A DNA stretch of 64,000 bases from a virus (IMGVR_UViG_3300030098_006058:1-64000), one strand, 5' to 3'; shown: positions 4,685 through 48,886, counted from the stretch's first letter. Program-made: numbers and translations. The notes: generated by a model not told the origin, from the letters alone.

Positions 4685-4910
4685 AAAAACTTTAAAAGAA
4701 AAGTATAAATTCGAACCGGTTAAAGGTAACGAAAAAGTATTAACACGAAGAATAGGTGAAGCAGAAACTATAGATGTATTTGGAAGCGCTCTTTGTTATA
4801 GAGGAGAAGTTATGGCTACTCTTGAATGTATGAGTAATGATAGGTTTGGAGAATATTTGGAGAGATTAATTAGAAGTTTAAAAAGAAGAAATGAAATTAA
4901 AAGTAATTAG
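4671..4910 (+). CDS. Hypothetical protein, 79 aa
   Basis: ORF track. Confidence 0.65.
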   Translation: MAITRKTLKEKYKFEPVKGNEKVLTRRIGEAETIDVFGSALCYRGEVMATLECMSNDRFGEYLERLIRSLKRRNEIKSN

Positions 4911-5361
4911 AATTAGCAGTGAATCAGATTCAACATCGGGATTATTATTTGATATTACCGATCCTGATAATAAAAAATTTTTAGCTTATACATTGGAAGA
5001 TGAAAAAAGAAAAGAAAAAGTTATGCATGAAACAAGAGTACCGGCTGGAGAATATCCGGTTGTACTTAGAACAGAAGGTGGGTATCATAATAAATATTCT
5101 AAAAGATTTTCTGACTTTCATGTTGGTATGTTGCATATTATTGATATACCTAATTTTGAGTATATTCTTATTCATTGTGGTAATACCGATGAAGATACTA
5201 GTGGATGCTTACTTGTTGGAGACTCCCAAGAAAATAACCAAGTCAAGAAGGACGGTTTTATAGGAGCATCTACACAAGCATACAGAAGAATATATCCAAA
5301 GATAGCAAAAGCTTTAGAAAATGGAGAAGAAGTAACAATTAAATATGTAGATTATGCGTAA
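4891..5361 (+). CDS. DUF5675-like protein, putative endolysin (L,D-peptidase-like)
   Basis: YTLED...TRVPAGEY...ILIHCGNTDEDTSGCLLVG pattern with a His/Cys pair. Confidence 0.8.
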   Translation: MKLKVIRISSESDSTSGLLFDITDPDNKKFLAYTLEDEKRKEKVMHETRVPAGEYPVVLRTEGGYHNKYSKRFSDFHVGMLHIIDIPNFEYILIHCGNTDEDTSGCLLVGDSQENNQVKKDGFIGASTQAYRRIYPKIAKALENGEEVTIKYVDYA

Positions 5362-5635
5362 TAGAACTGATCAAGAATTATTAGATGAAGCAATGGATAA
5401 TGCTTATAAAGTTGTAATGGGCTTAACTACTGTAGATGATATATTAGATAGTGATAAAGAAGAAGTTGTATTACCTTTTGATATGACACAAGATAATGCA
5501 TATGATGTAACAAAACTTATTGAGTTATTGGTATATTATTATGAAGGTGAAGAATGGTATGAAAGATGTGCAGCTTTAACAAAATTAACAAAGAATGGCA
5601 AAAAGAACGCAGTTTTTATTCGAACAGAAGAGTAA
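5354..5635 (+). CDS. Hypothetical protein, 93 aa
   Basis: ORF track; C-terminal EEWYERCAAL helical hairpin. Confidence 0.7.
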   Translation: MRNRTDQELLDEAMDNAYKVVMGLTTVDDILDSDKEEVVLPFDMTQDNAYDVTKLIELLVYYYEGEEWYERCAALTKLTKNGKKNAVFIRTEE

Positions 5636-5729
5636 AGTAACAAGAAGAGGAGTACATGCTAAAAGCGGTTCTTCTAAAAGTAAAAGTAGTAAAAATTATA
5701 AAAAACCATATAATAGACAAGGAAGATAA
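5595..5729 (+). CDS. Small highly basic protein, 44 aa (not in ORF track)
   Basis: MAKRTQFLFEQKSKVTRRGVHAKSGSSKSKSSKNYKKPYNRQGR; the stop is TAATG-coupled to 5729. Confidence 0.7.
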   Translation: MAKRTQFLFEQKSKVTRRGVHAKSGSSKSKSSKNYKKPYNRQGR

Positions 5730-6775
5730 TGAAAAATTTAATATTAATATTATTATTTTGTTTTAGTTTTGTAAACGGACAAAATAATTTTTTTAAATAC
5801 TCTACCTTTTATACATCGATGTCAATGGGTACATCTATGATAGAAAGGGAAGATTATATAGCAATAGATAAAGGTTATGAGGATGTAACGTGGGTCTCAC
5901 CTTATGACTATAATTTAACAGTAGGTCTACGAAAAATAGCAAGATTTGATTATGAACATAAAGTTAAAACATGGTATTATGGTACTGAAGACAATGTTGC
6001 AGATAATGTTACTATTGGTAACAGTGTTGGTTGGGAGTATCTTTTTAATTATTCATTTATACGGAATCGTGGTGATAAATATACTGAGCAAAATTTCTGG
6101 CTTAGATACCTTGGAAATAGCTACGTCACCAAAATCCAATATACAGATAACCAAAGAGTAGATCTAAAGTTTACATCTCTAGATACTCGTTATCGAATAA
6201 ATAAAGGTAATTGGGATTTTACAATAGGAGCAGTTTTAAGAATACACCCAGCATACGGAATTAATCCTATTGAAGACTTTTGGATACCAGGTGAATCAAC
6301 ATTTCAAGATCTAGCAGAAGATTTTGGTTATGTTCCAGAAATGTGGATTCAAGGTAATTATGTTAATCAGAATTGGTACGATGTTAGTGATGGGGATTCT
6401 ATTCTAATAGCAACATCAAATGATGAATTTTATACTTGGTGGTTTGGTGATGCAGTAGCATCATTTAATGAAAGGGAATTAGAAAAATTAGGTATGCAAA
6501 AAGAACTAAGTGCAGTATTAGGAATAGCATATTATAAATATACTCCTAAGTTTTGGTTACATGCATGGGCTAATATTCTTCCTTATCATCATGGATTAGA
6601 TGATTATTCTTATTCATATGAAGATGCAAAAGATATGATAGAATGGGATTCTGGTATTGTAACGGGTGTTAGACTTAATAAACATTTAGGGCTATTTGTT
6701 GAAGGTACTCATATGAAGTATTGGGGAAAGCCTGTGTTTGATCTTAAGTTTGGTTTTAACTATTTAATATTTTAA
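5729..6775 (+). CDS. Putative outer-membrane beta-barrel protein
   Basis: Sec signal peptide, aromatic-rich amphipathic strands and a BAM-type C-terminus FDLKFGFNYLIF. Confidence 0.7.
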   Translation: MKNLILILLFCFSFVNGQNNFFKYSTFYTSMSMGTSMIEREDYIAIDKGYEDVTWVSPYDYNLTVGLRKIARFDYEHKVKTWYYGTEDNVADNVTIGNSVGWEYLFNYSFIRNRGDKYTEQNFWLRYLGNSYVTKIQYTDNQRVDLKFTSLDTRYRINKGNWDFTIGAVLRIHPAYGINPIEDFWIPGESTFQDLAEDFGYVPEMWIQGNYVNQNWYDVSDGDSILIATSNDEFYTWWFGDAVASFNERELEKLGMQKELSAVLGIAYYKYTPKFWLHAWANILPYHHGLDDYSYSYEDAKDMIEWDSGIVTGVRLNKHLGLFVEGTHMKYWGKPVFDLKFGFNYLIF

Positions 6776-6777
6776 GA

Positions 6778-6963
6778 ATGAATTGGATAAAATTATTAGT
6801 AATAATATTACTAGCAGCAGGATGTTCAACGTTATTTAATCCTGAAATGTATAATCCTAATCCACGACCTGTGGTTGTTGAAGAGGAAGTAAAAGTTGAC
6901 ACAATAAAAATAACTATAAACGGTGTTGAAAAAATTATATTAGACACTTTAAAAACAGATTAA
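6778..6963 (+). CDS. Small lipoprotein
   Basis: Hydrophobic leader with lipobox LAAG-C, then a Pro-rich segment. Confidence 0.75.
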   Translation: MNWIKLLVIILLAAGCSTLFNPEMYNPNPRPVVVEEEVKVDTIKITINGVEKIILDTLKTD

Positions 6964-6965
6964 TA

Positions 6966-7898
6966 ATGAAAAAATTACTACTTATATTATTTGCGTTTAT
7001 TAGCTCATTTGCTGTTGCGCAATTTGGACCCTTAGATGATTATGATTCGGATTATCTTAATTCTAATAACATGTGTGTGATATGTGCACAAGCAGAAGGA
7101 TTTTATTGTGGAGATGATCCAGCAAACTGGACACAATATGCACCAAATGGATGTGTGCAAAATTCATGGATTAATGATGGATGGGAAGATTGTGTAGATG
7201 CCAGCGATGAAAATGGTGCTGTTCCTACACTTATAGAAGATTGTGTTGTTGTTTCTGATTGTGACACAGTTTATGTAGATGTACCTGTTATTGAAATAGA
7301 TACAGTATTTGTAGATGTTCCATTTTATATCTATGAAACTGAATATATATTTGATACTATTGTAGAAACAGAGTATATAACTCAAGTTGTTATAGACACT
7401 GTTATTGATATACAATTAGATACTATATATAATACAGAGTATATAACCCAAATACTTTTTGATACTATAGTAGAGATTGAATATGAAACTATATTTGAAG
7501 AAATATTTGTTACAGATACATTGTGGATGGAAGGAGCACTAGACACTATGTTTATAGATGTAATAGAATATGTAGATGTATTTGTATTTGACACAATAAT
7601 TGAAACAGAAATTGAATATGTTGAGTTTTTTGTAACAGACACAATAATTCAATATGACACTATAGTGAACACAGAATATGTAGAAATATTTGTTGTGGAT
7701 ACAATTATAGAATATGTAGAAATAATTAATACAGAATATATTGATTGTGATACAGGTATGCCATGTAACTCTTCTATTAATGAATTATTAGATAAGTCAA
7801 AAGAAAATGGTTTAATTTATAATATTAAGGGACAAGCAATTAGAGAACCTGAAGGTTTATATATAGAAAATGGTAAAATAAAATATATGATAAAATAA
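6966..7898 (+). CDS. Secreted protein: LDL-receptor-A-like Cys motif, acidic DT(I/V) repeat stalk, T9SS-like C-terminal domain
   Basis: Signal peptide ending AVAQ; CVQNSWINDGWEDCVDASDE; many xDT[IV] repeats; C-terminus LIYNIKGQAIREPEGLYIENGKIKYMIK. Confidence 0.65.
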   Translation: MKKLLLILFAFISSFAVAQFGPLDDYDSDYLNSNNMCVICAQAEGFYCGDDPANWTQYAPNGCVQNSWINDGWEDCVDASDENGAVPTLIEDCVVVSDCDTVYVDVPVIEIDTVFVDVPFYIYETEYIFDTIVETEYITQVVIDTVIDIQLDTIYNTEYITQILFDTIVEIEYETIFEEIFVTDTLWMEGALDTMFIDVIEYVDVFVFDTIIETEIEYVEFFVTDTIIQYDTIVNTEYVEIFVVDTIIEYVEIINTEYIDCDTGMPCNSSINELLDKSKENGLIYNIKGQAIREPEGLYIENGKIKYMIK

Positions 7899-8242
7899 TG
7901 AAAAAAGAATTATCAGAAGATAGTAAATTTCAAATAAGTATAAAAACATTAATAGGAATTGTAGTAGGTGTAGCTACTGTAATCTCTGCATATTTTGGTT
8001 TAATGGGTACTATAAATTCTAAATTTGTAGAACTTGAAGATAAAGTTGAACAAGCTTTAGAAATGCCAAAACCAGGTACAGGAACTTATACTATTGATAT
8101 GGGAGATCCAGCAGCTACAAATACATGGCCTCCAACTCGTATGGAGTTTAATATGAAAGATCAAATGGCCCGTAATCAAATTGATATGCTAATAAAGGAG
8201 ATTGAGGAGATGAAGGAAGAAATTAAAGAATTAAGAAAATGA
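7898..8242 (+). CDS. Single-pass membrane protein with coiled coils
   Basis: TM segment TLIGIVVGVATVISAYFGL; heptad-patterned C-terminus. Confidence 0.75.
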   Translation: MKKELSEDSKFQISIKTLIGIVVGVATVISAYFGLMGTINSKFVELEDKVEQALEMPKPGTGTYTIDMGDPAATNTWPPTRMEFNMKDQMARNQIDMLIKEIEEMKEEIKELRK

Positions 8243-8610
8243 AAAAATTATATTGTCTAATATTATTAATATGTAATATTTGTATAGGACAGGACTTTAT
8301 TGATGAAAATAATTTCAACGAAAAAATCGCTAAAGATATTACAGCTGTAGAATTTTGGGCCGGATGGAATGTTCAAAATGAATTTAAAGAATTAAACAAA
8401 CTGAAAGAGTGTGTAGTATATAGAATAGATGTAACTTCTAATATAGATATTCAAACTAAATACAGTGTTACCGCTATACCAACAATAATTATATTTGATA
8501 ATGGTGTAGAGAAAGAAAGGTTCTTACCTAATATTATGTTTCAACTTGATGCTGATAAGAAAACAGTTCAACATTCTGTTGATACAATAAAGTTAAATAA
8601 ATTTCAATAA
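8239..8610 (+). CDS. Exported thioredoxin-fold protein lacking CxxC
   Basis: Signal peptide; VEFWAGWN in place of the usual DFWAxWCxxC; YSVTAIPTIIIFDNG cis-Pro motif. Confidence 0.75.
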   Translation: MKKLYCLILLICNICIGQDFIDENNFNEKIAKDITAVEFWAGWNVQNEFKELNKLKECVVYRIDVTSNIDIQTKYSVTAIPTIIIFDNGVEKERFLPNIMFQLDADKKTVQHSVDTIKLNKFQ

Positions 8611-8984
8611 TGTATAATTATAATGCAAAATTAGATAGAGTAGTTGACGGTGATACTGTTGACGCTGTTATTGATTTAGGCTTTAATGTCTATATTAAAA
8701 AAAGAATTAGATTAGCAGGTATAAATGCACCTGAATCTAGAACTAGAAATAAAGTAGAAAAGAAGTTAGGAATAGCTGCTAAAGAGAGATTAATAGATAT
8801 ATTAGATGGTGCAGCAAATTGTTTTGAATTAGAATCACAAGAACTTGGTAAATATGGTAGAGTTCTTGGTAGATTACATATAAATAAATTAGCTGGAAAA
8901 GAAACATTAACGCAGGTTTGTGTTAATGATCTCCTTGTAAAAGAGGGACATGCTGTCAAGTATGATGGCGGAAAACGTATATAA
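8610..8984 (+). CDS. Thermonuclease (SNase-like) family nuclease
   Basis: VVDGDT, IRLAGINAPE, KYGRVLG and VNDLLVKEGHA motifs. Confidence 0.9.
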   Translation: MYNYNAKLDRVVDGDTVDAVIDLGFNVYIKKRIRLAGINAPESRTRNKVEKKLGIAAKERLIDILDGAANCFELESQELGKYGRVLGRLHINKLAGKETLTQVCVNDLLVKEGHAVKYDGGKRI

Positions 8985-8998
8985 TTAAAAAATAAATT

Positions 8999-9214
8999 AT
9001 GATGAATATTTTTAAAGATTCCAATGACTGGAACGAAAAATCAATAATAGGTTTTATTGCTTTTGTAATAATGTGTATTGTTATGGTATTAGATCTTTCT
9101 ACTGGATGGTATGGTTATGATTTAGTAATTAACGAATTCGTATATGACTCATTTGTATGGGTTGTATTAGGGTGCTTTGGTATAAGTGGTGTTGAGAAAT
9201 TTGCTAAAAAATAA
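8999..9214 (+). CDS. Putative holin (two TM segments)
   Basis: Two hydrophobic helices and a basic C-terminus (EKFAKK). Confidence 0.55.
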   Translation: MMNIFKDSNDWNEKSIIGFIAFVIMCIVMVLDLSTGWYGYDLVINEFVYDSFVWVVLGCFGISGVEKFAKK

Positions 9215-11223
9215 TGAATCATTTTAGACTACAACCTTCTTTTGTTAATACCAGAGAATTCTCTTGCGAAGCTAAGAATTTTTTAAAGAATGGATATTAT
9301 ACCAATTCTCCTCCGGGTACTTATGCATATAAAGAATATTGGGATGAACAAACTAGAAGATGTTTAGAAGGTTTTGAAGTAGGTGGGGTCCGGATAACTG
9401 GACCTCATTATTTTTATTTAAATTTTACACAAATAAAAGCTACTGTAAAAAAAGGAAAATTGGAAAGAAAGGTTTTAACCTTTCCAAGTTTTCTGGATAT
9501 GGATTATTATTACTTTGATGAGTGCGAATTAGCAAGAGAAAATGGTCAAGGTATGATAGTAGCTAAAGCTCGTCGTAAAGGTTTTTCATACAAAAATGGT
9601 GCCTTATGCGTTCATCAATATAATTTTTTTAGAGATTCTACAAGTATTATTGGTGCATATTTAAATGAATATGGTGGAGCTACAATGGCCATGAGTTTAG
9701 AAATGATTAACTTTATTAATAAACATACAGCATGGGCTAAACGTAGAAATCCAGATCGAAGAGATTTTGTTAAAGCTAGATTTAAAGAAGTATTAGATGG
9801 GAAAGAAGTATGGAATGGATATAATAGTGAAATATTTACTTTAACATTTAAAGATAATTTCTCTGCAGCTATTGGTAAAACAGCTGATCTCATGTTATGG
9901 GAAGAGGCTGGTAAATTTCCTAATCTTATAAATGCATATATGATTACTGCTCCTGTATTTAGGGACGGTAATGTGATGATTGGGATGCCATTGATATTTG
10001 GAACAGGTGGTGATATGGATGGAGGATCAAATGATTTTGCTGAGATGTTTTATAATCCAGATAAATATTGGTTAAGACCATTTGAGAATATATGGGATGA
10101 AGGTGGAGCAGGAACTAATTGTGGATTCTTTATTGATGATATGTGGTACAAACCAGGAAAGGTAACTTTAAAATCAGGTGAAGTTGTAAAGATGGTAGAT
10201 GAAGAAGGTAATTCTAATAGAGATGCTGCAGAAGAGTTTTTAGATCAAGAAAGAAAAATTATTAAAACTACAGATTCTAGAACTACATGGGAGAAATATA
10301 TTACTCAATCTCCAAAGACTCCTAGAGAAGCTTTCTTAAGAAGTAGTGGAAATATATTCCCAACTATTGAATTGAATGCGTGGTTAGGAGAATTGGAAGT
10401 TACCAAAATAGCTCAAGATATGGCTATGATTGGAGAATTATATTGGGAAAAAGATGATATAAAGTGGATGCCTAATATTGAATTAAATCCTATAAATAAA
10501 TTTCCAATTAAAACAAATGATGATAGAACAGGATGTATTGTTATTTGGGAACATCCTTACAAGGACGCTTCGGGTAATATTCCATATGGATTATATATAG
10601 CTGGGACTGACCCTTACGATCAAGATGATTCTACTACTAGTTCATTAGGTAGTACTTTTATTTATAAGACTTTTCAAAAATTTGATAATACTTATAATAT
10701 ACCAGTAGCAGAATATACAGGTAGACCAGATACAGCAAAAGAATATTATGAAAATGTAAGAAAACTTCTTACATATTATAATGCACAAACATTATATGAG
10801 AACAATTTAAAGGGATTAAAAATATATTTTGAACAGAAGAAATGTTTACATTTATTAAAAGAACAACCAAATATATTAAAAGATATTGTTAATAGAACTA
10901 CAGTAAGTAGAGGTTATGGAGTTCATATGAGTGAACCAATTAAAGTTCAATGTGAATTATATCTTAGAGATTGGTTGTTAGAAAAAAGAGCAGATGGAGA
11001 AAAGGGAGATCAATTAAATTTACATACAATTTATTCAATTCCCTTAATACAAGAATTAATAGCATATGATCATAAAGAAGGTAATTTTGACCGTGCAATA
11101 GCATTTATGTTATGTATATTACATTCCCATGAAAACTATAATATTGATTTAGAAGCTAAATTTGACTTTAATATGGGAGATAAATTTTGGCGATCTTCAT
11201 TATTTAAGAAAAGAAAAAGATAA
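9214..11223 (+). CDS. terL: Terminase large subunit
   Basis: Walker A-like KARRKGFS, Walker B-like LWEEAG, motif III FGTGG, nuclease motifs GTDPYD and GNFDR; crAss-type N-terminus. Confidence 0.95.
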   Translation: MNHFRLQPSFVNTREFSCEAKNFLKNGYYTNSPPGTYAYKEYWDEQTRRCLEGFEVGGVRITGPHYFYLNFTQIKATVKKGKLERKVLTFPSFLDMDYYYFDECELARENGQGMIVAKARRKGFSYKNGALCVHQYNFFRDSTSIIGAYLNEYGGATMAMSLEMINFINKHTAWAKRRNPDRRDFVKARFKEVLDGKEVWNGYNSEIFTLTFKDNFSAAIGKTADLMLWEEAGKFPNLINAYMITAPVFRDGNVMIGMPLIFGTGGDMDGGSNDFAEMFYNPDKYWLRPFENIWDEGGAGTNCGFFIDDMWYKPGKVTLKSGEVVKMVDEEGNSNRDAAEEFLDQERKIIKTTDSRTTWEKYITQSPKTPREAFLRSSGNIFPTIELNAWLGELEVTKIAQDMAMIGELYWEKDDIKWMPNIELNPINKFPIKTNDDRTGCIVIWEHPYKDASGNIPYGLYIAGTDPYDQDDSTTSSLGSTFIYKTFQKFDNTYNIPVAEYTGRPDTAKEYYENVRKLLTYYNAQTLYENNLKGLKIYFEQKKCLHLLKEQPNILKDIVNRTTVSRGYGVHMSEPIKVQCELYLRDWLLEKRADGEKGDQLNLHTIYSIPLIQELIAYDHKEGNFDRAIAFMLCILHSHENYNIDLEAKFDFNMGDKFWRSSLFKKRKR

Positions 11224-11228
11224 AAATA

Positions 11229-11259
11229 TTTGGAAATAAGATAAATTTATATATTTTTG
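11229..11259 (+). promoter_or_regulatory. Bacteroidota sigma70-type promoter upstream of portal
   Basis: TTTG at 11229-11232 and TATTTTTG at 11252-11259. Confidence 0.7.
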
Positions 11260-11279: not shown

Positions 11280-13775
11280 ATGCAGGGATTAAATCAAAAT
11301 AACATATTAGAGGAGCTACCAAAACAGAAAATAGCTAAATCTAAAAAGGGAAAAAAATGGGGAAAAGCTTGTATAGATGAATTAGAAAAAGTTACATATA
11401 GTGACATGTCTTATAATGGACGATCCTCTAGATATAGAAAACAAATTAATTATGATTTGTATAACGGTGTTTTAGATCAGAATGATTTTGAATATGTAGT
11501 CAATCCTTATGGATTTAGTAAAGATGAATTCCCAGCTAACTTACAACATTATGATATAATATCTCCCAAATTACAACTTCTAATGGGGGAAGAAATTAAA
11601 AGACCTTTTAACTTTAGAGTTGTTTCTCATGATCCTGAATCTGTTTCTAAGATGGAAGAGGTGAAGAAAGAAATGATGATGGAATTTCTATATAGTGTAT
11701 TAGTACCACCACAAGTACAACAACAGCAACAACAAGAAATGATGCAGATGCAACAACAGGGAGCATCTGAAGAGGAGATGCAAATGGCACAGCCAAAAAC
11801 ACCTGCTCAAATAGAAAAATACATAGCATACGAATATCAAGATGTTAGAGAAAAACAAGGTCAAAATATTTTAGAATATCTAGTTAAAAATCAAAATATA
11901 GAAAATAAGTTCAATGCAGGATTTAAGGATGCTTTAATCGCAGGAGAAGAAATTTATTGGGTAGGCGAAGTTGCAGGTGAACCTGTAGTAAGAGTATGTA
12001 ATCCTTTAGACGTACGTGTTATATTAGATCCAGACTCACCTTGGATAGAAGATGCTCAATCTGTAGTAGAAGAAAGATGGTTAACATTAGCAACTGTTAT
12101 TGATGAATATCATGAATATTTAACTCCTCAAGAAATAGATAAATTAGAAAAAGGATGGGGAGGTAGAGATAGTTATATGGATAGTAACGGTGTTAATTAT
12201 CCATATTCAGAATTTAATATTGTTAATTATGATGCAAGAGGAACTTTTGATCCAGAGCATATTCGAAGTTATAGACGAGATGGTATGATTCGTGTTATAC
12301 AATGCGAATGGAAATCTATGCGTAAAGTAGGATTTATAACTTATAAAGATGAGATAGGATTTGAACAACAAGATATTGTAGATGAAATTTTTGAAGTACC
12401 AGAAGAAGCAGAAAAAAATAAAGATGGAGAATGGGTATTTGGAGGAATGCGTTTAAAATGGCATTGGATAAGTGAATATTGGGAAGGTACAAAAATAGCT
12501 GAAGATATTTATTTAAATATTAAGCCTAAAGAAAACCAAAGAAGAGATATGGATAATCCTAGTAATGTCAAATCTGGATATGTAGGATATATTTATAATG
12601 AAAGAAATTCAGAATCTATTTCCTTGATAGATCGTATGAAACCATATCAGTATTTGTATAATATTATTTATTATCGAACTGAATTAGCTTTAGCAAAATC
12701 AAAAGGTAAAGTGGCTTTAATGGATATTTCACAAATACCTTCATCAGAAGGATGGGACGTTTCTAAGTGGATGTACTATCTAGAAGCTGTAGGTGTGATG
12801 TTTATTAACTCCAGAGAGGAGGGGAATAGATCCCAGCAAGCCCCGCAATTTAATCAATTCCAATCTATTGATCTTTCTATGGGTAATTATATTAATACTC
12901 ATGTCCAACTATTAGATCAAATCAAAAATGAGATTGGAGAACTCTCTGGAGTTTCTAGACAAAGACAAGGACAGGTTCAAACTTCTGAACTTGTAGGAAA
13001 TACTGAACGAGCTGTTGTTCAGTCTTCTCATATTACAGAATATTGGTTTTATAATCATAGTGAAGTTAAAAGAAAAGTATTACAAGCATTAATCGATGTA
13101 GCAAAAATGGCTTGGAAGAGTGGTAAGAAAATTCAATATATTATGGATGACATGAGTCGAGTATTTCTTAATCTAGAAACTGATGATTTTTCTAGTACTA
13201 ATTATGGAGTATTTGTTTCTAATTCTGGTAAAGATGATAGAGCAGTAGATTCAATGAGACAATTAGCTCAACAAGCTCTTCAAGCAGGAGTAACTAATTT
13301 CTCAGATGTAGCAAGTATTATGCAGTCAGAATCATTAGGTGATATGAAACGAAAACTAGTAGATGCAGAAAATAAAATGCAACAAAAACAAGCTGAAGAT
13401 GGTCAAAGACAACAACAGATGCAGCAACAAGCAGCTCAATTAGCGCAGCAAACAGAACAAATGAAGCAAGATAGAGAAGATGCACGTGCTCAATTAGAAG
13501 CAGATACTAAGATTAGAGTGGCAGAGATTAATGCTGAAGCTAGGTTAGCTGATCAAGATGATAATAATGATGGTTATATTGATATACAAAATCGAGATAA
13601 TGATGTTAAATTAGAATCAGATAAAGAAAAAATAAATTTACAACGAGAAAAACAACAAGCAGAACTTGGATTGAAACAGCAAGAAATGGAAGAAAAGAAA
13701 AGAGCTAACCAAGCTAATGAGCAAATAAAAAGAACTGCTGCAAATAAGAAACCTAATGCCGGAGGATCCAAATAA
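11280..13775 (+). CDS. Portal protein (crAss/P22-like)
   Basis: Follows TerL; LPKQK, NYDLYNG, LMGEEIKRPF and GVSRQRQGQV motifs; Q-rich coiled-coil barrel. Confidence 0.92.
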   Translation: MQGLNQNNILEELPKQKIAKSKKGKKWGKACIDELEKVTYSDMSYNGRSSRYRKQINYDLYNGVLDQNDFEYVVNPYGFSKDEFPANLQHYDIISPKLQLLMGEEIKRPFNFRVVSHDPESVSKMEEVKKEMMMEFLYSVLVPPQVQQQQQQEMMQMQQQGASEEEMQMAQPKTPAQIEKYIAYEYQDVREKQGQNILEYLVKNQNIENKFNAGFKDALIAGEEIYWVGEVAGEPVVRVCNPLDVRVILDPDSPWIEDAQSVVEERWLTLATVIDEYHEYLTPQEIDKLEKGWGGRDSYMDSNGVNYPYSEFNIVNYDARGTFDPEHIRSYRRDGMIRVIQCEWKSMRKVGFITYKDEIGFEQQDIVDEIFEVPEEAEKNKDGEWVFGGMRLKWHWISEYWEGTKIAEDIYLNIKPKENQRRDMDNPSNVKSGYVGYIYNERNSESISLIDRMKPYQYLYNIIYYRTELALAKSKGKVALMDISQIPSSEGWDVSKWMYYLEAVGVMFINSREEGNRSQQAPQFNQFQSIDLSMGNYINTHVQLLDQIKNEIGELSGVSRQRQGQVQTSELVGNTERAVVQSSHITEYWFYNHSEVKRKVLQALIDVAKMAWKSGKKIQYIMDDMSRVFLNLETDDFSSTNYGVFVSNSGKDDRAVDSMRQLAQQALQAGVTNFSDVASIMQSESLGDMKRKLVDAENKMQQKQAEDGQRQQQMQQQAAQLAQQTEQMKQDREDARAQLEADTKIRVAEINAEARLADQDDNNDGYIDIQNRDNDVKLESDKEKINLQREKQQAELGLKQQEMEEKKRANQANEQIKRTAANKKPNAGGSK

Positions 13776-16218
13776 AAAGATAAATCTAAATTTACCTCAA
13801 TTTAAATCTAAGAAAAATAGTAGATTATTTTTTATGGGTGAGCGTGGGAATAGACATGGAGGAATACATGAGGAAACTTTTATGGGTGCAAGATGGACAA
13901 CAGATCTTCCTATATCTGATCGTGTATCTTTTTCTCCAACTGTAACAGCAGGAAAGGTTAATGTGGACATACCTCCTATTCGTCATGCTCATGTTCCTGG
14001 TGAAATTAATAAATTTAGATTTCCTATTTTAGGTGGGGGTATAAAAATAAAATTAGGTAAAAAATATGGAGGTGATAATATAAGTTCTAATAAAGCTGCT
14101 AAAATTTTAGATCATGGTTATATTAGAAATAAACCTCTAACATTTAAACAAAGGGCTTTCTTTGGTTCTAAGCTTAATCGTGCATATGGAGGATTAATTA
14201 AAAAATATGAAAATGGTGGAGACATAAATACTCAAATTCCTTTAAATATTCAACCACAAGATAAACTAATAAAACCTAAAGATATTAAAATGAGAGGTAG
14301 TAGTAAATATACTATTGATTCAGATTATTATTATAGGAATAGAAAAAATGCAAAAATTATTAAACCTGTTCAAAATTTTTTAATACAACAAGGTTTTTTA
14401 TCAGAAGGTGATAATGATGGATTTTGGGGAACTCAAACAGAAGGAGCTTTACAGGATTATATTACAGATCAACATATATCTAATTTTGAATGGGGAGAAA
14501 ATTTTACTCCTTCTTCTGACTTTCTTAGAAAGAAAGTATTTACTGAAAGTGGGGGATATTCTGATGTAAAATCTTCAGCGGGGGCTTTAGGATTAATGCA
14601 ATTTATGCCAAAGAATGTTAAAGAATTTCAAAAAGATGGAAGATATTTTGATGAAGTTAGAACAGGATGGTCTGCTTCAAATAATGCGGATGCTATTTTA
14701 GGCTCTCAATTATATATAAGAGATTTAGCAGAAAATTATGGAATCATAACTCCAAATATGAATCAAAAAACAAAAGAAGCATTTTTAAATATAGCTTATA
14801 ATTGGAGTCCTGATGGTGCTATGTATTTAAGAGATCATCTTAAAACATTAACATATCCATCTGGAGAGAAAAAAGGACAGAAAGTTGATATTAATGATGT
14901 TAATTATTGGTTACCATATATAGAAAAAAATAGAGGTTTTGAAGGGGGATGGAGATATTTAAAAGATAAAGCAGGTGAACCTATATATAAAAAACATTGG
15001 TGGACAGCTGAAGAAATAAAAGCAGAAAAAAATCCGGAAAAGAAGAAAAAGATGAGAGGAGGATGGAAATGGACTAAACAATATGAGTTGGATGATAAAG
15101 GAGAAAAAATTCCTGCTTCATGGTATGTACCCACAGAGACTACAAATTATGCTAGAATATCTCATGGTATGGCAGATCCAAGTAATGAGAAAGTTACAAA
15201 AAAATTATCTGATTTAAAAGATTGGAATTATGAATTAAGCGACTTAATAAGAAATCCTATATATAAGAAAGAATGGGGAGGATATAGTCAAAGCCATCTT
15301 TCAAGACTTTTAGAACAAGGAGGTGATCCAGGTAAAACTGAACCGCCAGAAAATTCATATCCTGAATTAACTGGTAAAAATTTAGAAAGTTTTAATGAGA
15401 TAACAAAATGGGAACCTGATGAGGTGAAAGATATATTATATAAAACTTGGCTAAATACAGGAAAACCTAAGTTATCGACTGAAGGGTTGTTTGGGATGTT
15501 CCCGGGTAGTTATAATGTATACACGAATAAGATTAGAGCTGCTGATACTGAAACTCTTGTAGAAGAATTAAAACATGCATATCAATTTAGAGGAGATAAA
15601 AGAACAGGTGATCAAGACAATTCACTTAAAAGTAAAATAAAATCTAAGCTATTTCATCACGGTCGAGGACCTTTTCAACTTGTAGGCACATTACTGGGAG
15701 CACCTTATCAACTAAGTAGAGTTCTGGGTTTAAACAAGAACTTCAGAAAAAATCTTTATAATCCTTATAAAAAAACGGAAGGAGTAGAAGGGATTCATGA
15801 TCAATTCGGTGCTTATGGTCATGCGTGGGGACACGGATTAGAAAGTAATGTAAATAGAGCAAGAAATAAAGCTATATATCGTGAAATTAAAGAAGCTCAA
15901 GAAAACGAAGATTGGGAGAAAGAACTTAACTTAAAAACCAGACTTTATTCACTATCAAATCCCATAGATTCTGCTTCGTTTCGCTTAAATAGTACCCCTA
16001 ACCTTCAGGAACGGACTGATAATTCTCATCTTAACCCCAGAAAAAATTGGTTAGAGGTGGATAATTTTACTACATGGGATCCTGAAAATAAAGAACCGTT
16101 GGGAATAGCAAAAGAGATGTTTGAAGATTCATATGAAAATAAATTATATAATTTTTTATATAATAGAAATACAATAGATGATCTTAATCTATATCAAGAT
16201 TCAAAATATTGGGAATAA
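13756..16218 (+). CDS. Multidomain virion protein with peptidoglycan-binding and lytic transglycosylase domains
   Basis: VQNFL...DGFWGTQTEGALQDY (PG-binding); TES...SSAGALGLMQFMP...AYN...ETTNY (SLT motifs); repeated xxGG motifs. Confidence 0.8.
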   Translation: MPEDPNKKINLNLPQFKSKKNSRLFFMGERGNRHGGIHEETFMGARWTTDLPISDRVSFSPTVTAGKVNVDIPPIRHAHVPGEINKFRFPILGGGIKIKLGKKYGGDNISSNKAAKILDHGYIRNKPLTFKQRAFFGSKLNRAYGGLIKKYENGGDINTQIPLNIQPQDKLIKPKDIKMRGSSKYTIDSDYYYRNRKNAKIIKPVQNFLIQQGFLSEGDNDGFWGTQTEGALQDYITDQHISNFEWGENFTPSSDFLRKKVFTESGGYSDVKSSAGALGLMQFMPKNVKEFQKDGRYFDEVRTGWSASNNADAILGSQLYIRDLAENYGIITPNMNQKTKEAFLNIAYNWSPDGAMYLRDHLKTLTYPSGEKKGQKVDINDVNYWLPYIEKNRGFEGGWRYLKDKAGEPIYKKHWWTAEEIKAEKNPEKKKKMRGGWKWTKQYELDDKGEKIPASWYVPTETTNYARISHGMADPSNEKVTKKLSDLKDWNYELSDLIRNPIYKKEWGGYSQSHLSRLLEQGGDPGKTEPPENSYPELTGKNLESFNEITKWEPDEVKDILYKTWLNTGKPKLSTEGLFGMFPGSYNVYTNKIRAADTETLVEELKHAYQFRGDKRTGDQDNSLKSKIKSKLFHHGRGPFQLVGTLLGAPYQLSRVLGLNKNFRKNLYNPYKKTEGVEGIHDQFGAYGHAWGHGLESNVNRARNKAIYREIKEAQENEDWEKELNLKTRLYSLSNPIDSASFRLNSTPNLQERTDNSHLNPRKNWLEVDNFTTWDPENKEPLGIAKEMFEDSYENKLYNFLYNRNTIDDLNLYQDSKYWE

Positions 16219-34966: not shown

Positions 34967-34998
34967 TTTGAAATTATAAATATTTATCTATATATTTG
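34967..34998 (+). promoter_or_regulatory. Bacteroidota sigma70-type promoter
   Basis: TTTG at 34967-34970 and TATATTTG at 34991-34998. Confidence 0.7.
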
Positions 34999-35037: not shown

Positions 35038-35403
35038 ATGGCGACTTTAACACATCAATTAATAATATCTAGTACTACTACAAGCTCTGATGCTTTAAGT
35101 ATTAGTACTTCAGATGTACTTACTGTTACTGAACCGTCTATAAATATTGCAAGAAAATCAATAGCTACTGGAGCTGCTCAAACAATTTTACCTGCTATTT
35201 CAGCTAAGTTTACATATATCTATTTAAAAGCTATATCAGGAACTGCTGCTTCAGATTGGGTACAAGTTAAAATTAACGGTCAGGTTATGGCTAAATTAAG
35301 AATTGGAGAATCTATGTGGTTACCAATTTATAATAATTATGCGGTAGAAGGAGAAGCTTACGGAAATGCAGTAATTGTAGAATACGGACAATGGTCAGTA
35401 TAA
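35038..35403 (+). CDS. Small beta-rich structural protein
   Basis: ORF track; T/S/A-rich. Confidence 0.7.
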   Translation: MATLTHQLIISSTTTSSDALSISTSDVLTVTEPSINIARKSIATGAAQTILPAISAKFTYIYLKAISGTAASDWVQVKINGQVMAKLRIGESMWLPIYNNYAVEGEAYGNAVIVEYGQWSV

Positions 35404-36187: not shown

Positions 36188-36403
36188 ATGGCAAGACGTA
36201 TTTCAAATTCAGAACTACATGAGGATATACTCGAAATTAAACAGGATGTGAGTGATCTTAAAAAAAGATTACTCGATCCTGATTTCGGTATCGTTTCTCG
36301 TGTAAATAGAAATACTTCTTTTCGTAGTAGTGCAGGTAAAGTCCTGTGGTCAATTTGGGTAGCAATAGTGGGAATTCTGGCTAAATTGATGTTTTGGAAT
36401 TAA
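36188..36403 (+). CDS. Coiled-coil plus C-terminal TM protein, holin/XhlA-like
   Basis: Heptad N-terminus and TM segment VLWSIWVAIVGILAKLMFW. Confidence 0.6.
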   Translation: MARRISNSELHEDILEIKQDVSDLKKRLLDPDFGIVSRVNRNTSFRSSAGKVLWSIWVAIVGILAKLMFWN

Positions 36404-36413
36404 ATTTTAATGT

Positions 36414-37013
36414 ATGAAGATAGATCCGAAATGGTTAATAATAATAGGTTTAGTTATTTTTATATTACTGTCTAGGGCATGTAACAATAACTTTATACTA
36501 GGACCAAAGGTAATAGATGAAGTAACAACCGTACATACAGATACGTTGAGAGTTACACATATAGACACTCTACAATTTGTAGATACTATTCAAAGAATAG
36601 TAACTGTAAAAATAGAAGAACCTGTTAAAGTAATCATTGAAGATGATGTTTGGGATGAACTTAATATAAATGAATATAATAATTCATTTAATGATAGTTT
36701 AATAGATGGAACTATTTATACTAGGGTAGATGGAACAATGTTAGATCAAGAATTTAATTATATTCCTAAATTTCCTCAGTATATTATTCAAGTAGATACA
36801 GTTATGGTAAATACCTTGACGAATACTACAACAACAGTTCAATCTAGATTTAATTTAAATATAGGAGCAGAAGTAGGAGGTAATCCTGAAATGTTTAACT
36901 TCTCTCCTTTAATAGGCTTTACAAGTCGAAATGGGTTTTCATATTCCTACAGATATGGAATAATGGATAAAACACATAATGTAGGAATAATGTATAATTT
37001 TAAAATAAAATAA
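36414..37013 (+). CDS. Membrane-anchored spanin-like protein
   Basis: N-terminal TM, DT-rich stalk, C-terminal amphipathic beta strands ending GIMYNFKIK. Confidence 0.55.
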   Translation: MKIDPKWLIIIGLVIFILLSRACNNNFILGPKVIDEVTTVHTDTLRVTHIDTLQFVDTIQRIVTVKIEEPVKVIIEDDVWDELNINEYNNSFNDSLIDGTIYTRVDGTMLDQEFNYIPKFPQYIIQVDTVMVNTLTNTTTTVQSRFNLNIGAEVGGNPEMFNFSPLIGFTSRNGFSYSYRYGIMDKTHNVGIMYNFKIK

Positions 37014-46251: not shown

Positions 46252-46282
46252 TTTGGAAAATCAATAAAAATTATTATTTTTG
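46252..46282 (+). promoter_or_regulatory. Bacteroidota sigma70-type promoter upstream of the cargo/vRNAP block
   Basis: TTTG at 46252-46255 and TATTTTTG at 46275-46282. Confidence 0.7.
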
Positions 46283-46303: not shown

Positions 46304-48886
46304 ATGGCGAATAAAAAGAAAAAAAGTTTTTCATATGAATATGGTGGTAATTCTCTAGGAATGCCTAAATGGTCTCCTATGATGAAAGCAGAATATGGTT
46401 ATGGTTCTAGTGGAGCAAATCAAGGTTTAGATTTGGTAACAAATAATATAGATAAATTTTTACCTCCTACAAATCCTCTTTCTATAGGATTAAAAGTACT
46501 TAATACTGGAATAGATATATTCAATGTACATAGAACAAACCAAAAAATAAAACAAGAAAAAAAGACATTAAATGAGAAAAGAGAATTAACTAATCTGTTA
46601 ATGGATCCAGATTCTAATAAAGACTCATTAAATATGACTCAGGCTATAGCAGCTAATCAAAGTGATATTGCAAGGATAGAGAATCTAGAAGAACAAAATA
46701 TGATGACAGATGCTATTTTACCAAATGCTAGGAATCTAGTTAATGCTGGATTAGGTACTGCAGGAGTTGATTATACAGCTGAAGGTTTTGATGAAAAAGA
46801 ATTTGTACAAGGTTTATTTGGTAATGCTGCTTATGGAGGATCTCAACAACCTACTGAAAACTATGAAGCAGAAGGAGGAGAAGTTATTCAACATGAACCT
46901 GGAAATCAGCCTGGAACAACAGGTAATATGAAAACTGTGGGTAATAATCCAACTTTATCTAAATTAGAAGGTAAGTCTCATAATCGAGGAGGAGAAGCTG
47001 TAAGTTCTGACGGAGATCAATATGTATATTCTAATAAATTAAAATCAGATGAATGGGGAATAACCTTTGCAGCAGCCGCAGAAAAAATAGCTAATAAAAT
47101 AGAAAAATTTGAAGAAGCAGCAAGTGATGGGGATAAGATAACAAAAGATACTGCTGCAGCTATGATTCAAGAATGGAATGGTAGGTTGCTTAAATTAAAA
47201 GAAGAACAAGAACGGAAGAGAGAAGAAAAATTTATGGAAATGTTACAGTCAGGTGCATCGATGGAAGAACTTTCACAGAATTTTCCTGATATACTTGAAA
47301 AGTTTATGCAAGAGAACTTAGATCCTCAACAACAATCTGGAGCTCCTCAGCCAGCTATGGATCAAGGTTTAGGAGAAGCAGAAGCTATGCTTCCACCTGA
47401 AATGAGATATGGTGGTAAAATGTATGAACATGGTGGACCACATGATGATGATCCATGGTTACCTAGAACAGATGTAGGTACAGATGCAACACAAGGACGT
47501 TTAACTGAAATGACTTTTTCAGGTTATGGTCAACCTTTAAATATATATTCAAATGATCCTAAAATGAGTGAATATCTTCAAGGATTATCAGGTACAGGAG
47601 ATCAATTAGGCGCTAAATGGTGGGGAGGTCTTCCGCCAGATCTTAAAGCAAAAGCTCAAGACTTAGGTATTACTGGTTTAGGAAGCTTTGGTGATGATGT
47701 TAATCTTATAACACAATTTGAACAAGCTGCTAATGAATTAGGATATGAGATGCCTATAGAAGAATTAGGTCAAGGTAAAGTTGGAGAATATATTCTAGGG
47801 GTTTCTGATTGGTCCCCAACAACAACACCTTCTCTAGAAACAAAGGGATTTGAAGGATTTCCATCTAAAGAATTTACATTAAACCCTGATGATTTTAAAG
47901 TAGAGGAAGAAGAAGGTGGAAGAGAGAAATGGACAGCTCAACCTACTACAGATCCTTTATTTGGACCATTTCCTCCACAAAAAAGGCGTAATCCTATTGA
48001 TTTTAGCTTTCTCAACACTAGGCGAAATATTGATTTAGGAGAAGGTAATGAAGATATATTTAATACAGGTACAGGAGAAGACAATGACCCTGAAACTGAA
48101 ACTGAAACTCCAAATAGAAAAAGTAGGATAAATATGCCGAATTTAAGGAACATTCTGAAAATGAAATTTACAAATCAGAAGAAAGAAGAAAATGCTGAGG
48201 ATCCTACAAACACTAAAGAAAAAAGAGGATTTGATTGGACAGCTTTACAAAATATGAAATTATCACCGTGGTATAATTTATCAAAATCTAAAGAACCACT
48301 AACTCCTAGCCAGATGCGTCTTAATCCTTTCTATCATGAATTAACTACTAGAGAAGATAGAGATATAAATATACAACCGATATTAAATCGTAATTTAGAT
48401 ATGATGTATACAAATCTAGATCTATCAAAAGACTTTACTGGCGGTTCAAGTAGTAGTATTATGTCTGCTTTTAATATGGCAGATCAAACAAGACAGCAAG
48501 GAGATAGTTCAGCTTGGGGTCAAAAATTATCAGGTGAAGCTCAAATAGAAGCTCAAAATGATGCAATGAAGATGGGGCTGGGAGAAGGCTTTGCAGCAGA
48601 ACAAAGAAGAATAGATGAATTAATAGGTATGAAACAGGGTAAAAGACAAGAGTTTGAAAAAACTTTCTTTGAACAAATAGATGCAATGGGAGACTTAAAT
48701 AGACAGGAAAGGAATATGAGGGCTCAAGATGAGATGCTAAGTAAAGTATTACAAAAAATTTACGGTATAAATTTAGCTGACTTTAAATCTAAATTTGGAG
48801 GATCTCCTCCTGAATATGATGTTAATCAGATAGATTGGAATGATCCAGAAATAATATCTCTTATAAAAAGTTTATTAAAAAATTAA
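46304..48886 (+). CDS. Internal virion cargo (ejection) protein
   Basis: EAEGGE...GKSHNRGG...VYSNKL motif set, repeated YGG motifs, and position after the muzzle gene. Confidence 0.75.
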   Translation: MANKKKKSFSYEYGGNSLGMPKWSPMMKAEYGYGSSGANQGLDLVTNNIDKFLPPTNPLSIGLKVLNTGIDIFNVHRTNQKIKQEKKTLNEKRELTNLLMDPDSNKDSLNMTQAIAANQSDIARIENLEEQNMMTDAILPNARNLVNAGLGTAGVDYTAEGFDEKEFVQGLFGNAAYGGSQQPTENYEAEGGEVIQHEPGNQPGTTGNMKTVGNNPTLSKLEGKSHNRGGEAVSSDGDQYVYSNKLKSDEWGITFAAAAEKIANKIEKFEEAASDGDKITKDTAAAMIQEWNGRLLKLKEEQERKREEKFMEMLQSGASMEELSQNFPDILEKFMQENLDPQQQSGAPQPAMDQGLGEAEAMLPPEMRYGGKMYEHGGPHDDDPWLPRTDVGTDATQGRLTEMTFSGYGQPLNIYSNDPKMSEYLQGLSGTGDQLGAKWWGGLPPDLKAKAQDLGITGLGSFGDDVNLITQFEQAANELGYEMPIEELGQGKVGEYILGVSDWSPTTTPSLETKGFEGFPSKEFTLNPDDFKVEEEEGGREKWTAQPTTDPLFGPFPPQKRRNPIDFSFLNTRRNIDLGEGNEDIFNTGTGEDNDPETETETPNRKSRINMPNLRNILKMKFTNQKKEENAEDPTNTKEKRGFDWTALQNMKLSPWYNLSKSKEPLTPSQMRLNPFYHELTTREDRDINIQPILNRNLDMMYTNLDLSKDFTGGSSSSIMSAFNMADQTRQQGDSSAWGQKLSGEAQIEAQNDAMKMGLGEGFAAEQRRIDELIGMKQGKRQEFEKTFFEQIDAMGDLNRQERNMRAQDEMLSKVLQKIYGINLADFKSKFGGSPPEYDVNQIDWNDPEIISLIKSLLKN

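Follow-up and report, generated by a model that had tools for sequence, protein, structure and literature searches.

The closest described counterparts of the locus analysed here are the two-component spanins, such as lambda Rz/Rz1 and T4 PseT.3/PseT.2, and the outer-membrane (OM) β-barrels encoded by phages. In the survey text of Kongari et al. (2018, PMC6139136), 91 of 677 phages are given as spanin-less, Bacteroides and Croceibacter phages among them, and the periplasmic Cys, which serves intermolecular disulfides, is missing in only about 4% of two-component spanin systems. For the opening of the OM by spanin-less phages, a cationic peptide is the one alternative located in the literature searched (bioRxiv 515445). 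As to barrels, the text of a recent preprint tallies 1,603 OM barrels across 1,303 huge phages and takes up the blocking of LamB by lambda Lom (10.64898/2026.10.24.761521). We analysed a 64,000-nt stretch of viral DNA (IMGVR_UViG_3300030098_006058:1-64000; hereafter the window) in which three genes, here called A, D and E, encode an OM β-barrel, an inner-membrane coiled-coil protein and an exported thioredoxin fold. This trio is a concrete candidate for opening the OM in spanin-less phages. We propose, with slightly less than even confidence, that it acts in lysis, either breaching the OM or timing or controlling that step.

The trio was delineated by comparing 101 loci, comprising 21 close (A 52–95% identical) and 80 distant ones (A about 32% identical), the latter kept from at least 529 confirmed IMG/VR viral stretches. 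A and D occurred together in 100 of the 101 loci. In 97 of these 100, D followed A at a distance of no more than 5 kb, and in 59 it came directly after A; D and E were adjacent on one strand, and often overlapping, in 98 of 98 loci; A-D-E was the commonest order (39 times). All 21 close loci held A, C, D and E, accompanied by G in 17, F in 10, the DUF5675 gene in 10 and B in 5. Of the 80 distant loci, 79 had D, 77 had E, 39 had G (56 of all 101) and none had C. B was absent from the rest of the 101 loci, and F was no farther than 3 kb from the core in 15 of the 101. The conserved core is the trio of A plus D-E; G is a frequent companion, C a clade-specific insertion, B a sporadic accessory and F a passenger. 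An initial annotation of the window had proposed an undescribed envelope-spanning module; a conserved one does exist, the trio genes co-occurring in other genomes. It had also joined six genes, A to F, into one unit, a view that we abandon: C belongs to one clade, B comes and goes, and F is a cytoplasmic passenger without a signal peptide.

The trio moves as a cassette between phages with diverged terminases. In five complete relatives terL was 25–41% identical to that of the window and the major head protein 30–32% identical or undetected. The same five genomes retained A at 52–80%, D at up to 80%, E at 57–68% and G at 78–83% identity. A (80%) and D are closest in the very genome whose terL is most distant (25%). 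In the 8-kb stretches flanking the module in the relatives, matches to other genes of the window genome were few. No homologue of A was found in 50,697 GenBank phage records. Two pattern scans of species genomes (185,579 species) yielded only two phage-sized contigs from metagenome-assembled genomes, one reading Peptidase_M15 followed by A-D-E and the other D-E-A, permuted yet contiguous.

Protein A has a signal peptide, a C-terminal Phe and about 12 predicted strands. Its AlphaFold2 (AF2) model, built with 17 homologues in the input (predicted local distance difference test (pLDDT) 70.6, predicted template modelling score (pTM) 0.60), resembled OM barrels exclusively in Foldseek and VIA-align, in keeping with the signal-peptide β-barrel that had been annotated at 5729. 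Foldseek gave 69 matches at E ≤ 0.001, headed by FapF, NanC and autotransporter β-domains. Comparison with 12-stranded OM barrels gave VIA Z scores of 12.2–15.2 (root-mean-square deviation (rmsd) 3.1–4.7, 163–212 residues aligned), values that speak for a common fold only. KdgM scored 15.2 (rmsd 3.1, 163 residues), the EstA β-domain 15.1, NanC 14.2, NalP 13.8, Tsx 12.5, OMPLA 12.3, and FapF and LpxR 12.2 each. At the sequence level A had no match in Pfam, PHROG or NCBIfam, and a profile of 51 A sequences found no PDB chain at E ≤ 10.

The most conserved segment of A spans residues of about 54–104. Invariant His and Arg residues, together with the OMPLA and LpxR fold matches, prompted the thought of a lipid enzyme of either type. 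A PorP/SprF-type barrel was considered and rejected, as the PF11751 model matched nothing in the whole genome at E ≤ 10 and A has no Pfam match. In two marine sequencing runs the summed contig depth was 443–944 over 5885–6101 in A and 8055–8271 in D, compared with about 20–30 over terL. Taking contig depth as a rough guide, these two segments seem to be common to many co-occurring phages at ≥90% identity.

Protein D has a single transmembrane (TM) segment at residues 11–29 in an N-in orientation, followed by a short linker with Pro and a periplasmic helix of heptad periodicity. Across 51 homologues the median excess of hydrophobic residues at the a and d positions was 0.55, against a shuffled median of 0.20, which upholds the annotated inner-membrane coiled coil. 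Eight residues (K16, T17, I39, E83, K87, D88, R92 and I95) are invariant in all 51 sequences, and no sequence has a Cys after the TM segment. D occurs in two length forms, of 114 and ~94 aa, whose distribution is out of step with A. Searches of GenBank phage records by tblastn with D of the window and of the distant branch returned no match. Two candidate relatives were ruled out by profile comparison: gp187 of Flavobacterium phage immuto, likewise a TM segment plus coiled coil (hhalign probability 0.3%), and a second TM-coiled-coil family present at some loci (2.8%).

Protein E combines a signal peptide with a thioredoxin fold (PF00085, E = 2.6e-9), and its profile matched 207 PDB sequences at E ≤ 0.01, the best at 9.6e-13. 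Alignment to solved thioredoxins placed Asn at both active-site Cys positions (NxxN) in 51 of 51 sequences. The cis-Pro is retained, and Q18, N44, N47 and P81 are invariant. The initial annotation had called this protein an exported, Cys-less thioredoxin fold. Fold and export signal stand, but E is CxxC-less rather than Cys-less, one Cys (C58) being left in the mature protein of the window. Fused forms of E were not seen among longer proteins, which is weak evidence, and three generic thioredoxin-like matches were all that E gave in GenBank phage records.

The window corresponds to the initial 64 kb of an IMG/VR virus record of 89,108 bp with a completeness rating of 100%. Its gene products include a terminase of the crAss type (phrog_6681, E = 6.2e-139) as well as portal and major head proteins, and the terL DNA is about 65–71% identical to that of gut crAss-like phages. 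From 2001 to 64000 all open reading frames (ORFs) of ≥100 aa read in the + direction, and the module is followed by terL and by the genes for the portal and the major head protein. The locus thus forms part of the long structural arm and lies shortly before terL. A regular expression detected signal peptides that end before Gln in 47 of 51 A, 16 of 16 C and 49 of 51 E homologues; in the remaining four A homologues a signal peptide before Gln was visible by eye. The Q-rule for Bacteroidetes signal peptides (described in PMC5837995) therefore indicates a Bacteroidota host. The best explanation of the region is a lysis/envelope island of a marine crAss-like phage infecting such a host.

The six genes of the initial annotation are all present on the + strand and tightly packed as described (Table 1). 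A/B and B/C are separated by 2-nt gaps, C/D and E/F overlap as TAATG and D/E as ATGA; the flanking junctions, between the small ORF at 5595 and A and between G and terL, are TAATG too. In a hydropathy scan 5 of the 10 ORFs with hydrophobic segments fell within 6778–9214. Barrel A, whose signal peptide fell below the threshold of that scan, adjoins this membrane-protein cluster. An independent marine metagenome run carried 6340–8854 in one contig piece with 1 difference, and neighbouring pieces covered 4800–5904 and 8825–9822, so the arrangement is not an assembly artefact of a single sample.

Table 1. Coordinates of the trio, its accessories and the flanking genes in the window.
Feature	Position	Strand	Basis and assignment
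DUF5675 protein, candidate endolysin	4891..5361	+	PF18925, phrog_1501; context, upstream edge of lysis region
A, signal-peptide outer-membrane β-barrel, 348 aa	5729..6775	+	Predicted fold; trio core
B, predicted lipoprotein, 61 aa	6778..6963	+	Lipobox and Cys; sporadic accessory
C, exported protein, 310 aa	6966..7898	+	Signal peptide, LDLa-like head, stalk and tail; clade-specific accessory
D, bitopic inner-membrane coiled coil, 114 aa	7898..8242	+	N-terminal TM segment and heptads; trio core
E, exported thioredoxin fold with NxxN, 123 aa	8239..8610	+	PF00085; trio core
F, SNase-type endonuclease, 124 aa	8610..8984	+	PF00565, phrog_452; passenger
G, 2-TM protein, 71 aa	8999..9214	+	Hydropathy; frequent trio companion, holin-like by size, topology and context

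To survey the neighbourhood of the trio, all genes lying no more than 3 kb from the core were clustered across the 101 loci, and one representative per cluster was annotated. An endolysin-like gene was present in 66 of the 101 loci and came from four unrelated families: phrog_33083-like (28 loci), Peptidase_M15_3 (15), DUF5675 (14) and PG_binding_1 plus Amidase_2 (9). Phage_holin_4 (24) or GTA_holin_3TM (16) genes occurred in 40 loci, and either of those or G in 62; 29 loci had neither an endolysin-like gene, a holin-like gene nor G. Among the genes that follow E in relatives are Peptidase_M15_3 (2 of 2 tested) and GTA_holin_3TM (3 of 3 tested). In one relative (L018) the slot directly upstream of the GTA_holin_3TM gene is filled by DUF5675, in another (L022) by a Peptidase_M15_3 gene. 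The span searched is roughly 10–15% of such genomes, and by our own estimate, which is not a computed control, an endolysin would fall there by chance far more rarely. Since unrelated endolysins swap places beside the same trio, we argue that the trio belongs to the lysis cassette.

In the window itself the six genes had been annotated as lying between an endolysin and a holin. The upstream DUF5675 protein (PF18925, E = 8.2e-25; phrog_1501, E = 5e-26) supports the first of these, DUF5675 being grouped structurally with C82 peptidases as a lysin candidate in the text of a 2026 preprint. Downstream, G, with TM segments at 11–29 and 47–65, is holin-like by size, topology and context; it is a putative holin of the class II or pinholin type that matched no holin family in Pfam or PHROG searches. 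The sole homologue of G in GenBank phages, in Flavobacterium phage immuto, is 50% identical and stands directly upstream of the annotated endolysin and holin. In the family search for G, 7927 of 8000 scored candidates reached E ≤ 0.001.

A search for lipobox ORFs revealed no canonical spanin. Protein B has a lipobox followed by Cys, as expected of the annotated lipoprotein, and a Pro-rich mature part with no Cys besides the lipid-modified one; no other ORF with a lipobox was found on the coding strand of this 89-kb genome. Its architecture is o-spanin-like, and B and D of the window would make a possible 'separated' two-component spanin. No unimolecular spanin (lipoprotein signal plus C-terminal TM segment) was found in the window genome. 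Three complete relatives with A, C, D and E had no credible lipobox ORF in any frame, as judged by a regular expression that may miss unusual lipoboxes; by the criteria set out in the text of Kongari et al. (PMC6139136) they are therefore spanin-less.

These observations suggest a three-tiered arrangement made late in infection. D would sit in the inner membrane with its coiled-coil helix in the periplasm, E would be a periplasmic, redox-dead thioredoxin fold, and A would form a roughly 12-stranded barrel in the OM. The holin-like G and the lysin candidate DUF5675 would act first, and the trio would then open the OM or control that step, filling the role that lipoprotein-based spanins have in other phages. 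In this phage the accessories are the small Pro-rich lipoprotein B and the exported, Cys-rich C with its tail resembling a short type IX secretion system (T9SS) signal; the SNase F is unrelated. The folds, the targeting signals, the linkage and mobility of A, D and E and the lysis genes around them are observed, whereas contact among the three proteins, late production and action on the OM are proposals.

A more specific version of this proposal is possible but doubtful. A, D and E may form a periplasm-spanning complex that constitutes a third kind of OM disruptor, barrel-based, beside spanins and cationic disruptins, and that is exchanged as a cassette among uncultured marine phages of Bacteroidota, which would form a very large group of users. 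Residues ~54–104 of A might then serve as a docking or active site and the NxxN thioredoxin as an adaptor between D and A. A complex prediction with A (19–348), D (40–114) and E (19–123) scored 0.00 for partner A against a mark of 0.32; run with no controls, it counts neither way.

Several points weigh against a lytic role. No homology ties A, D or E to lysis. For D neither a spanin nor a holin family was matched, the PHROG families that it did hit have no assigned function (phrog_1009 for 18 of 51 members), and its periplasmic part, at only about 55–75 residues, is short for spanning the periplasm on its own. The 101 loci are mutually related and their counts are not independent events. In 35 of them no recognised endolysin-like gene lies within 3 kb, about 25 of these having ample flanks, and many of the endolysin-less loci adjoin ribonucleotide reductase genes instead. 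At 17 loci there is a second TM-coiled-coil protein with a weak Rz-like match (E = 0.0028). Two relatives (L103 and L104, 9867–10079) have, directly after E, an ORF of 70 aa that starts with a lipobox and ends in a hydrophobic TM segment; this is the layout of a unimolecular spanin, though the protein seems too short to span the periplasm. Some of these phages may thus have other OM devices. Surface 'moron' genes also tend to adjoin lysis cassettes, and we infer late expression from gene order alone. Finally, superinfection exclusion is the function favoured for phage barrels in general in the preprint text (10.64898/2026.10.24.761521).

Protein C, which bears on two of the rival explanations, consists of a signal peptide, a Cys-rich LDLa-like head, an acidic stalk of DT[IV]-type repeats that varies in length, and a 43-aa tail. 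The head matched PF00057 below threshold (E = 4.2e-4). AF2 gave a whole-protein pLDDT of 45.9, with stalk residues 97–268 below 50; the tail model fits one helix and three to four short strands into 42 residues, at pLDDT 73–78. Foldseek returned no match at E ≤ 0.001, the best weak rows being LDLa repeats at E = 2.4 or weaker. The full-length protein and the tail, for six sequences per library, matched no Pfam or NCBIfam model of a T9SS C-terminal domain (CTD) at E ≤ 10, and the tail alone matched nothing at all in either library; the curated models we take to be PF18962 and TIGR04183. In the alignment, tail residues Y285, G289, Y299, I300 and G303 are invariant and K304 and K306 nearly so.

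The classical T9SS CTD is described in the text of PMC11285876 as a seven-strand, 3+4 β-sandwich. The tail of C was rejected as such a long-form type A CTD, as it matches no curated model and its length leaves no room for seven strands. 'Short' CTDs of Prevotella intermedia cargo are described by Ye et al. (2025, PMC11969387) as 40–51 aa in length and C-terminal on signal-peptide proteins. According to that text these carry motif B (Tyr, Gly, basic), then after 1–6 residues motif D (GxY then Ile) and motif E (basic), and are predicted as one three-strand sheet, sometimes plus a helix. The secreted protein with a T9SS-like tail of the initial annotation survives in a narrower form: the signal peptide is there and the tail resembles a short CTD by eye, without a match to any CTD model. 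C is, from its sequence, a plausible candidate T9SS cargo. A glycoside hydrolase gene of family 16 (PF00722, E = 8.2e-16) lies between A and C in two relatives (L006, at 9044–9751, and L011), indicating that the A-C junction accepts cargo genes.

Phage-encoded OM barrels are now widely reported (10.64898/2026.10.24.761521), and one alternative to a lytic role is superinfection exclusion or receptor masking, which we regard as unlikely. Here A, with C displayed in this clade, would alter the infected-cell surface against adsorption or injection, and D and E would help to insert or hold the barrel. The signal peptide of C, its possible short T9SS CTD and its LDLa-like head, of a ligand-binding type, would suit such a role. 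So would the strong conservation of A and the contig depth over parts of A and D, which indicates sharing among co-occurring phages. The module lies, however, in the late structural/lysis arm with overlapping stop and start codons, and exclusion genes of lytic phages are usually early. Exclusion also gives no reason for the invariant D-E pairing (98 of 98), nor for an inner-membrane coiled coil with a dead thioredoxin. PADLOC found no match for A–E or G, and A is unlike the 8-stranded barrels of the Lom type, its best fold matches being 12-stranded. Surface remodelling via C is possible; the context favours a last-stage lysis role over it, and of the roles listed in the initial annotation it is accordingly the part naming an 'alternative route for outer-membrane disruption' that gains most.

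Less probable still is a role confined to lysis timing, in which D, with its single TM segment, would resemble or bind a holin and E would be the partner of D in the periplasm, in the manner of T4 holin T and antiholin RI, with A sensing or relaying an outside signal. The D-E adjacency with its frequent overlap agrees with this, as does the topology of D, since N-in, one TM segment and a periplasmic domain is the class III holin layout; further holin-type genes are common at these loci (G in 56, Phage_holin_4 in 24, GTA_holin_3TM in 16), which would suit a multi-component system. The analogy is one of architecture, however: family searches gave no similarity to T4 T, RI or RIII, and we know of no timing system with an OM barrel. 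Very improbable, in our judgement, is uptake of nutrients or nucleosides, with A as a specific channel feeding the infected cell like Tsx, KdgM or NanC. These channels are among the best fold matches (Z 12.5, 15.2 and 14.2), but autotransporter β-domains, OMPLA, LpxR and FapF match A equally, so that a channel is not singled out, and the A profile has no solved relative at E ≤ 10. Ribonucleotide reductase genes do lie within 3 kb in 47 of 101 loci, though mostly on the opposite strand, and D and E would be left without explanation.

The least probable of these proposals makes A an anchor or shuttle for C, as PorP/SprF-type barrels are for neighbouring cargo genes. C follows A in 21 of 21 close loci, mostly directly, and its tail fits the short CTDs by eye in length, motif order and three-strand prediction. 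Against this, all 80 distant loci have A, and nearly all have D and E, yet none has C; nothing in the genome matches the PorP_SprF model at E ≤ 10, and no CTD model matches C. The reading of the trio as a late-acting lysis device that breaches the OM, or governs that step, remains the one we prefer.

Gene F is an ordinary cytoplasmic nuclease outside the envelope module. The annotated SNase assignment is confirmed by PF00565 (E = 8.8e-11) and the phrog_452 endonuclease family (E = 7.7e-36); no signal peptide was seen, and F gave the sole, weak PADLOC match. Directly upstream of A lies a very basic 44-aa ORF (5595–5729, +) that overlaps the start of A by 1 base and has no family match; it may bind nucleic acids or, as a cationic peptide, act on membranes. 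Homologues that share its ending occur near the lysis genes of relatives (L018 9454–9579, L020 12765–12890, L021 5508–5633 and L105 13289–13423). Other small and very basic proteins, many of them with a terminal QYD or QHD, occur in L019–L022, in L008 (11268–11570) and in neighbours; one such family is DUF6321 (PF19846, E = 4.8e-27), found within 3 kb of the trio in 12 loci.

Regulatory signals were sparse. Sigma-70-type promoter sites showed no excess (58 found, shuffle mean 68.1), and terminator-like matches in the region all lay inside coding sequence. A Bacteroidetes-type promoter pattern gave 5 matches against 3.07 expected, not above chance, with none inside the module and none between 2000 and 11228. 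Three of the five fall in the few intergenic gaps of the + arm, at 11229–11259, 34967–34998 and 46252–46282 (+), preceding the portal gene, a gene at 35038 and a gene at 46304, respectively; these are candidate late promoters. Elsewhere in the window, the tail-gene region encodes a 71-aa protein with a C-terminal TM segment (36188–36403, +) and a 199-aa protein with an N-terminal TM segment (36414–37013, +; phrog_25644, unknown function). An 820-aa protein (13756–16218, +) has weak PHROG matches to lytic-tail and endolysin domains (E = 5e-7 to 4e-6) and is probably a virion-borne wall-cutting protein for entry rather than a lysis enzyme.

The trio is widespread, the 529 or more IMG/VR stretches coming from one branch and a profile search for A giving, at E ≤ 0.001, 320 representatives of a set reduced at 50% identity. 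Its hosts would be Flavobacteria-type bacteria, which one paper describes as main responders to phytoplankton blooms. Should the trio prove not to be lytic, it would still be an unexplained, mobile envelope device of three compartments found in phages only. E would be a natural case of a thioredoxin fold put to non-redox use, and C, in this clade, a phage protein that may exploit the T9SS of its host.

Set beside known systems, the accessory C and the trio proteins A and E each show a partial likeness. The tail of C was compared by eye with the published text on short T9SS CTDs (PMC11969387), not with logos or a hidden Markov model (HMM). It resembles them in its 43 aa, in motifs B, D and E (Lys) and in a helix plus three-strand sheet. 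It differs in being phage-encoded and without an HMM match, and the preferred cleavage-site motif given in that text is not evident; moreover, for C we infer both the host and its T9SS. E shares with the thioredoxin family (PF00085) the fold, the profile match and the cis-Pro, and departs from it in having Asn at both active-site Cys positions, in export by a signal peptide and in its constant neighbour D. A is, like lambda Lom and the OM proteins of huge phages (10.64898/2026.10.24.761521), a phage gene for a Sec-exported β-barrel that is presumably BAM-inserted into the host OM. It differs from them in its about 12 strands, its lack of a sequence family and its phage contigs of about 60–170 kb. 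A is also tied to D and E, and the word 'thioredoxin' occurs 0 times in the main text of that preprint (10.64898/2026.10.24.761521).

Of the systems compared, it is the two-component spanins to which the proposed function relates the trio. In such spanins the two subunits bind through their C-termini and span the periplasm. Like lambda Rz/Rz1 and T4 PseT.3/PseT.2, the trio is encoded in the lysis region and has a partner in the OM. D resembles an i-spanin, in architecture only, by its N-terminal TM segment and periplasmic coiled coil, and at 114 aa is close in length to the T4 i-spanin (117 aa). The window phage also has, in B, a small Pro-rich lipoprotein; unlike an o-spanin gene, which is embedded in, overlaps or adjoins that of the i-spanin, the gene of B is separated from D by the 933-nt gene C, and it is missing in 16 of 21 close loci and in three complete genomes. 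Neither D (51 of 51 sequences) nor B has a periplasmic Cys, and the trio shares no sequence similarity with the spanins. Its constant OM partner is a β-barrel rather than a lipoprotein, and it adds a periplasmic thioredoxin-fold protein that is always present.

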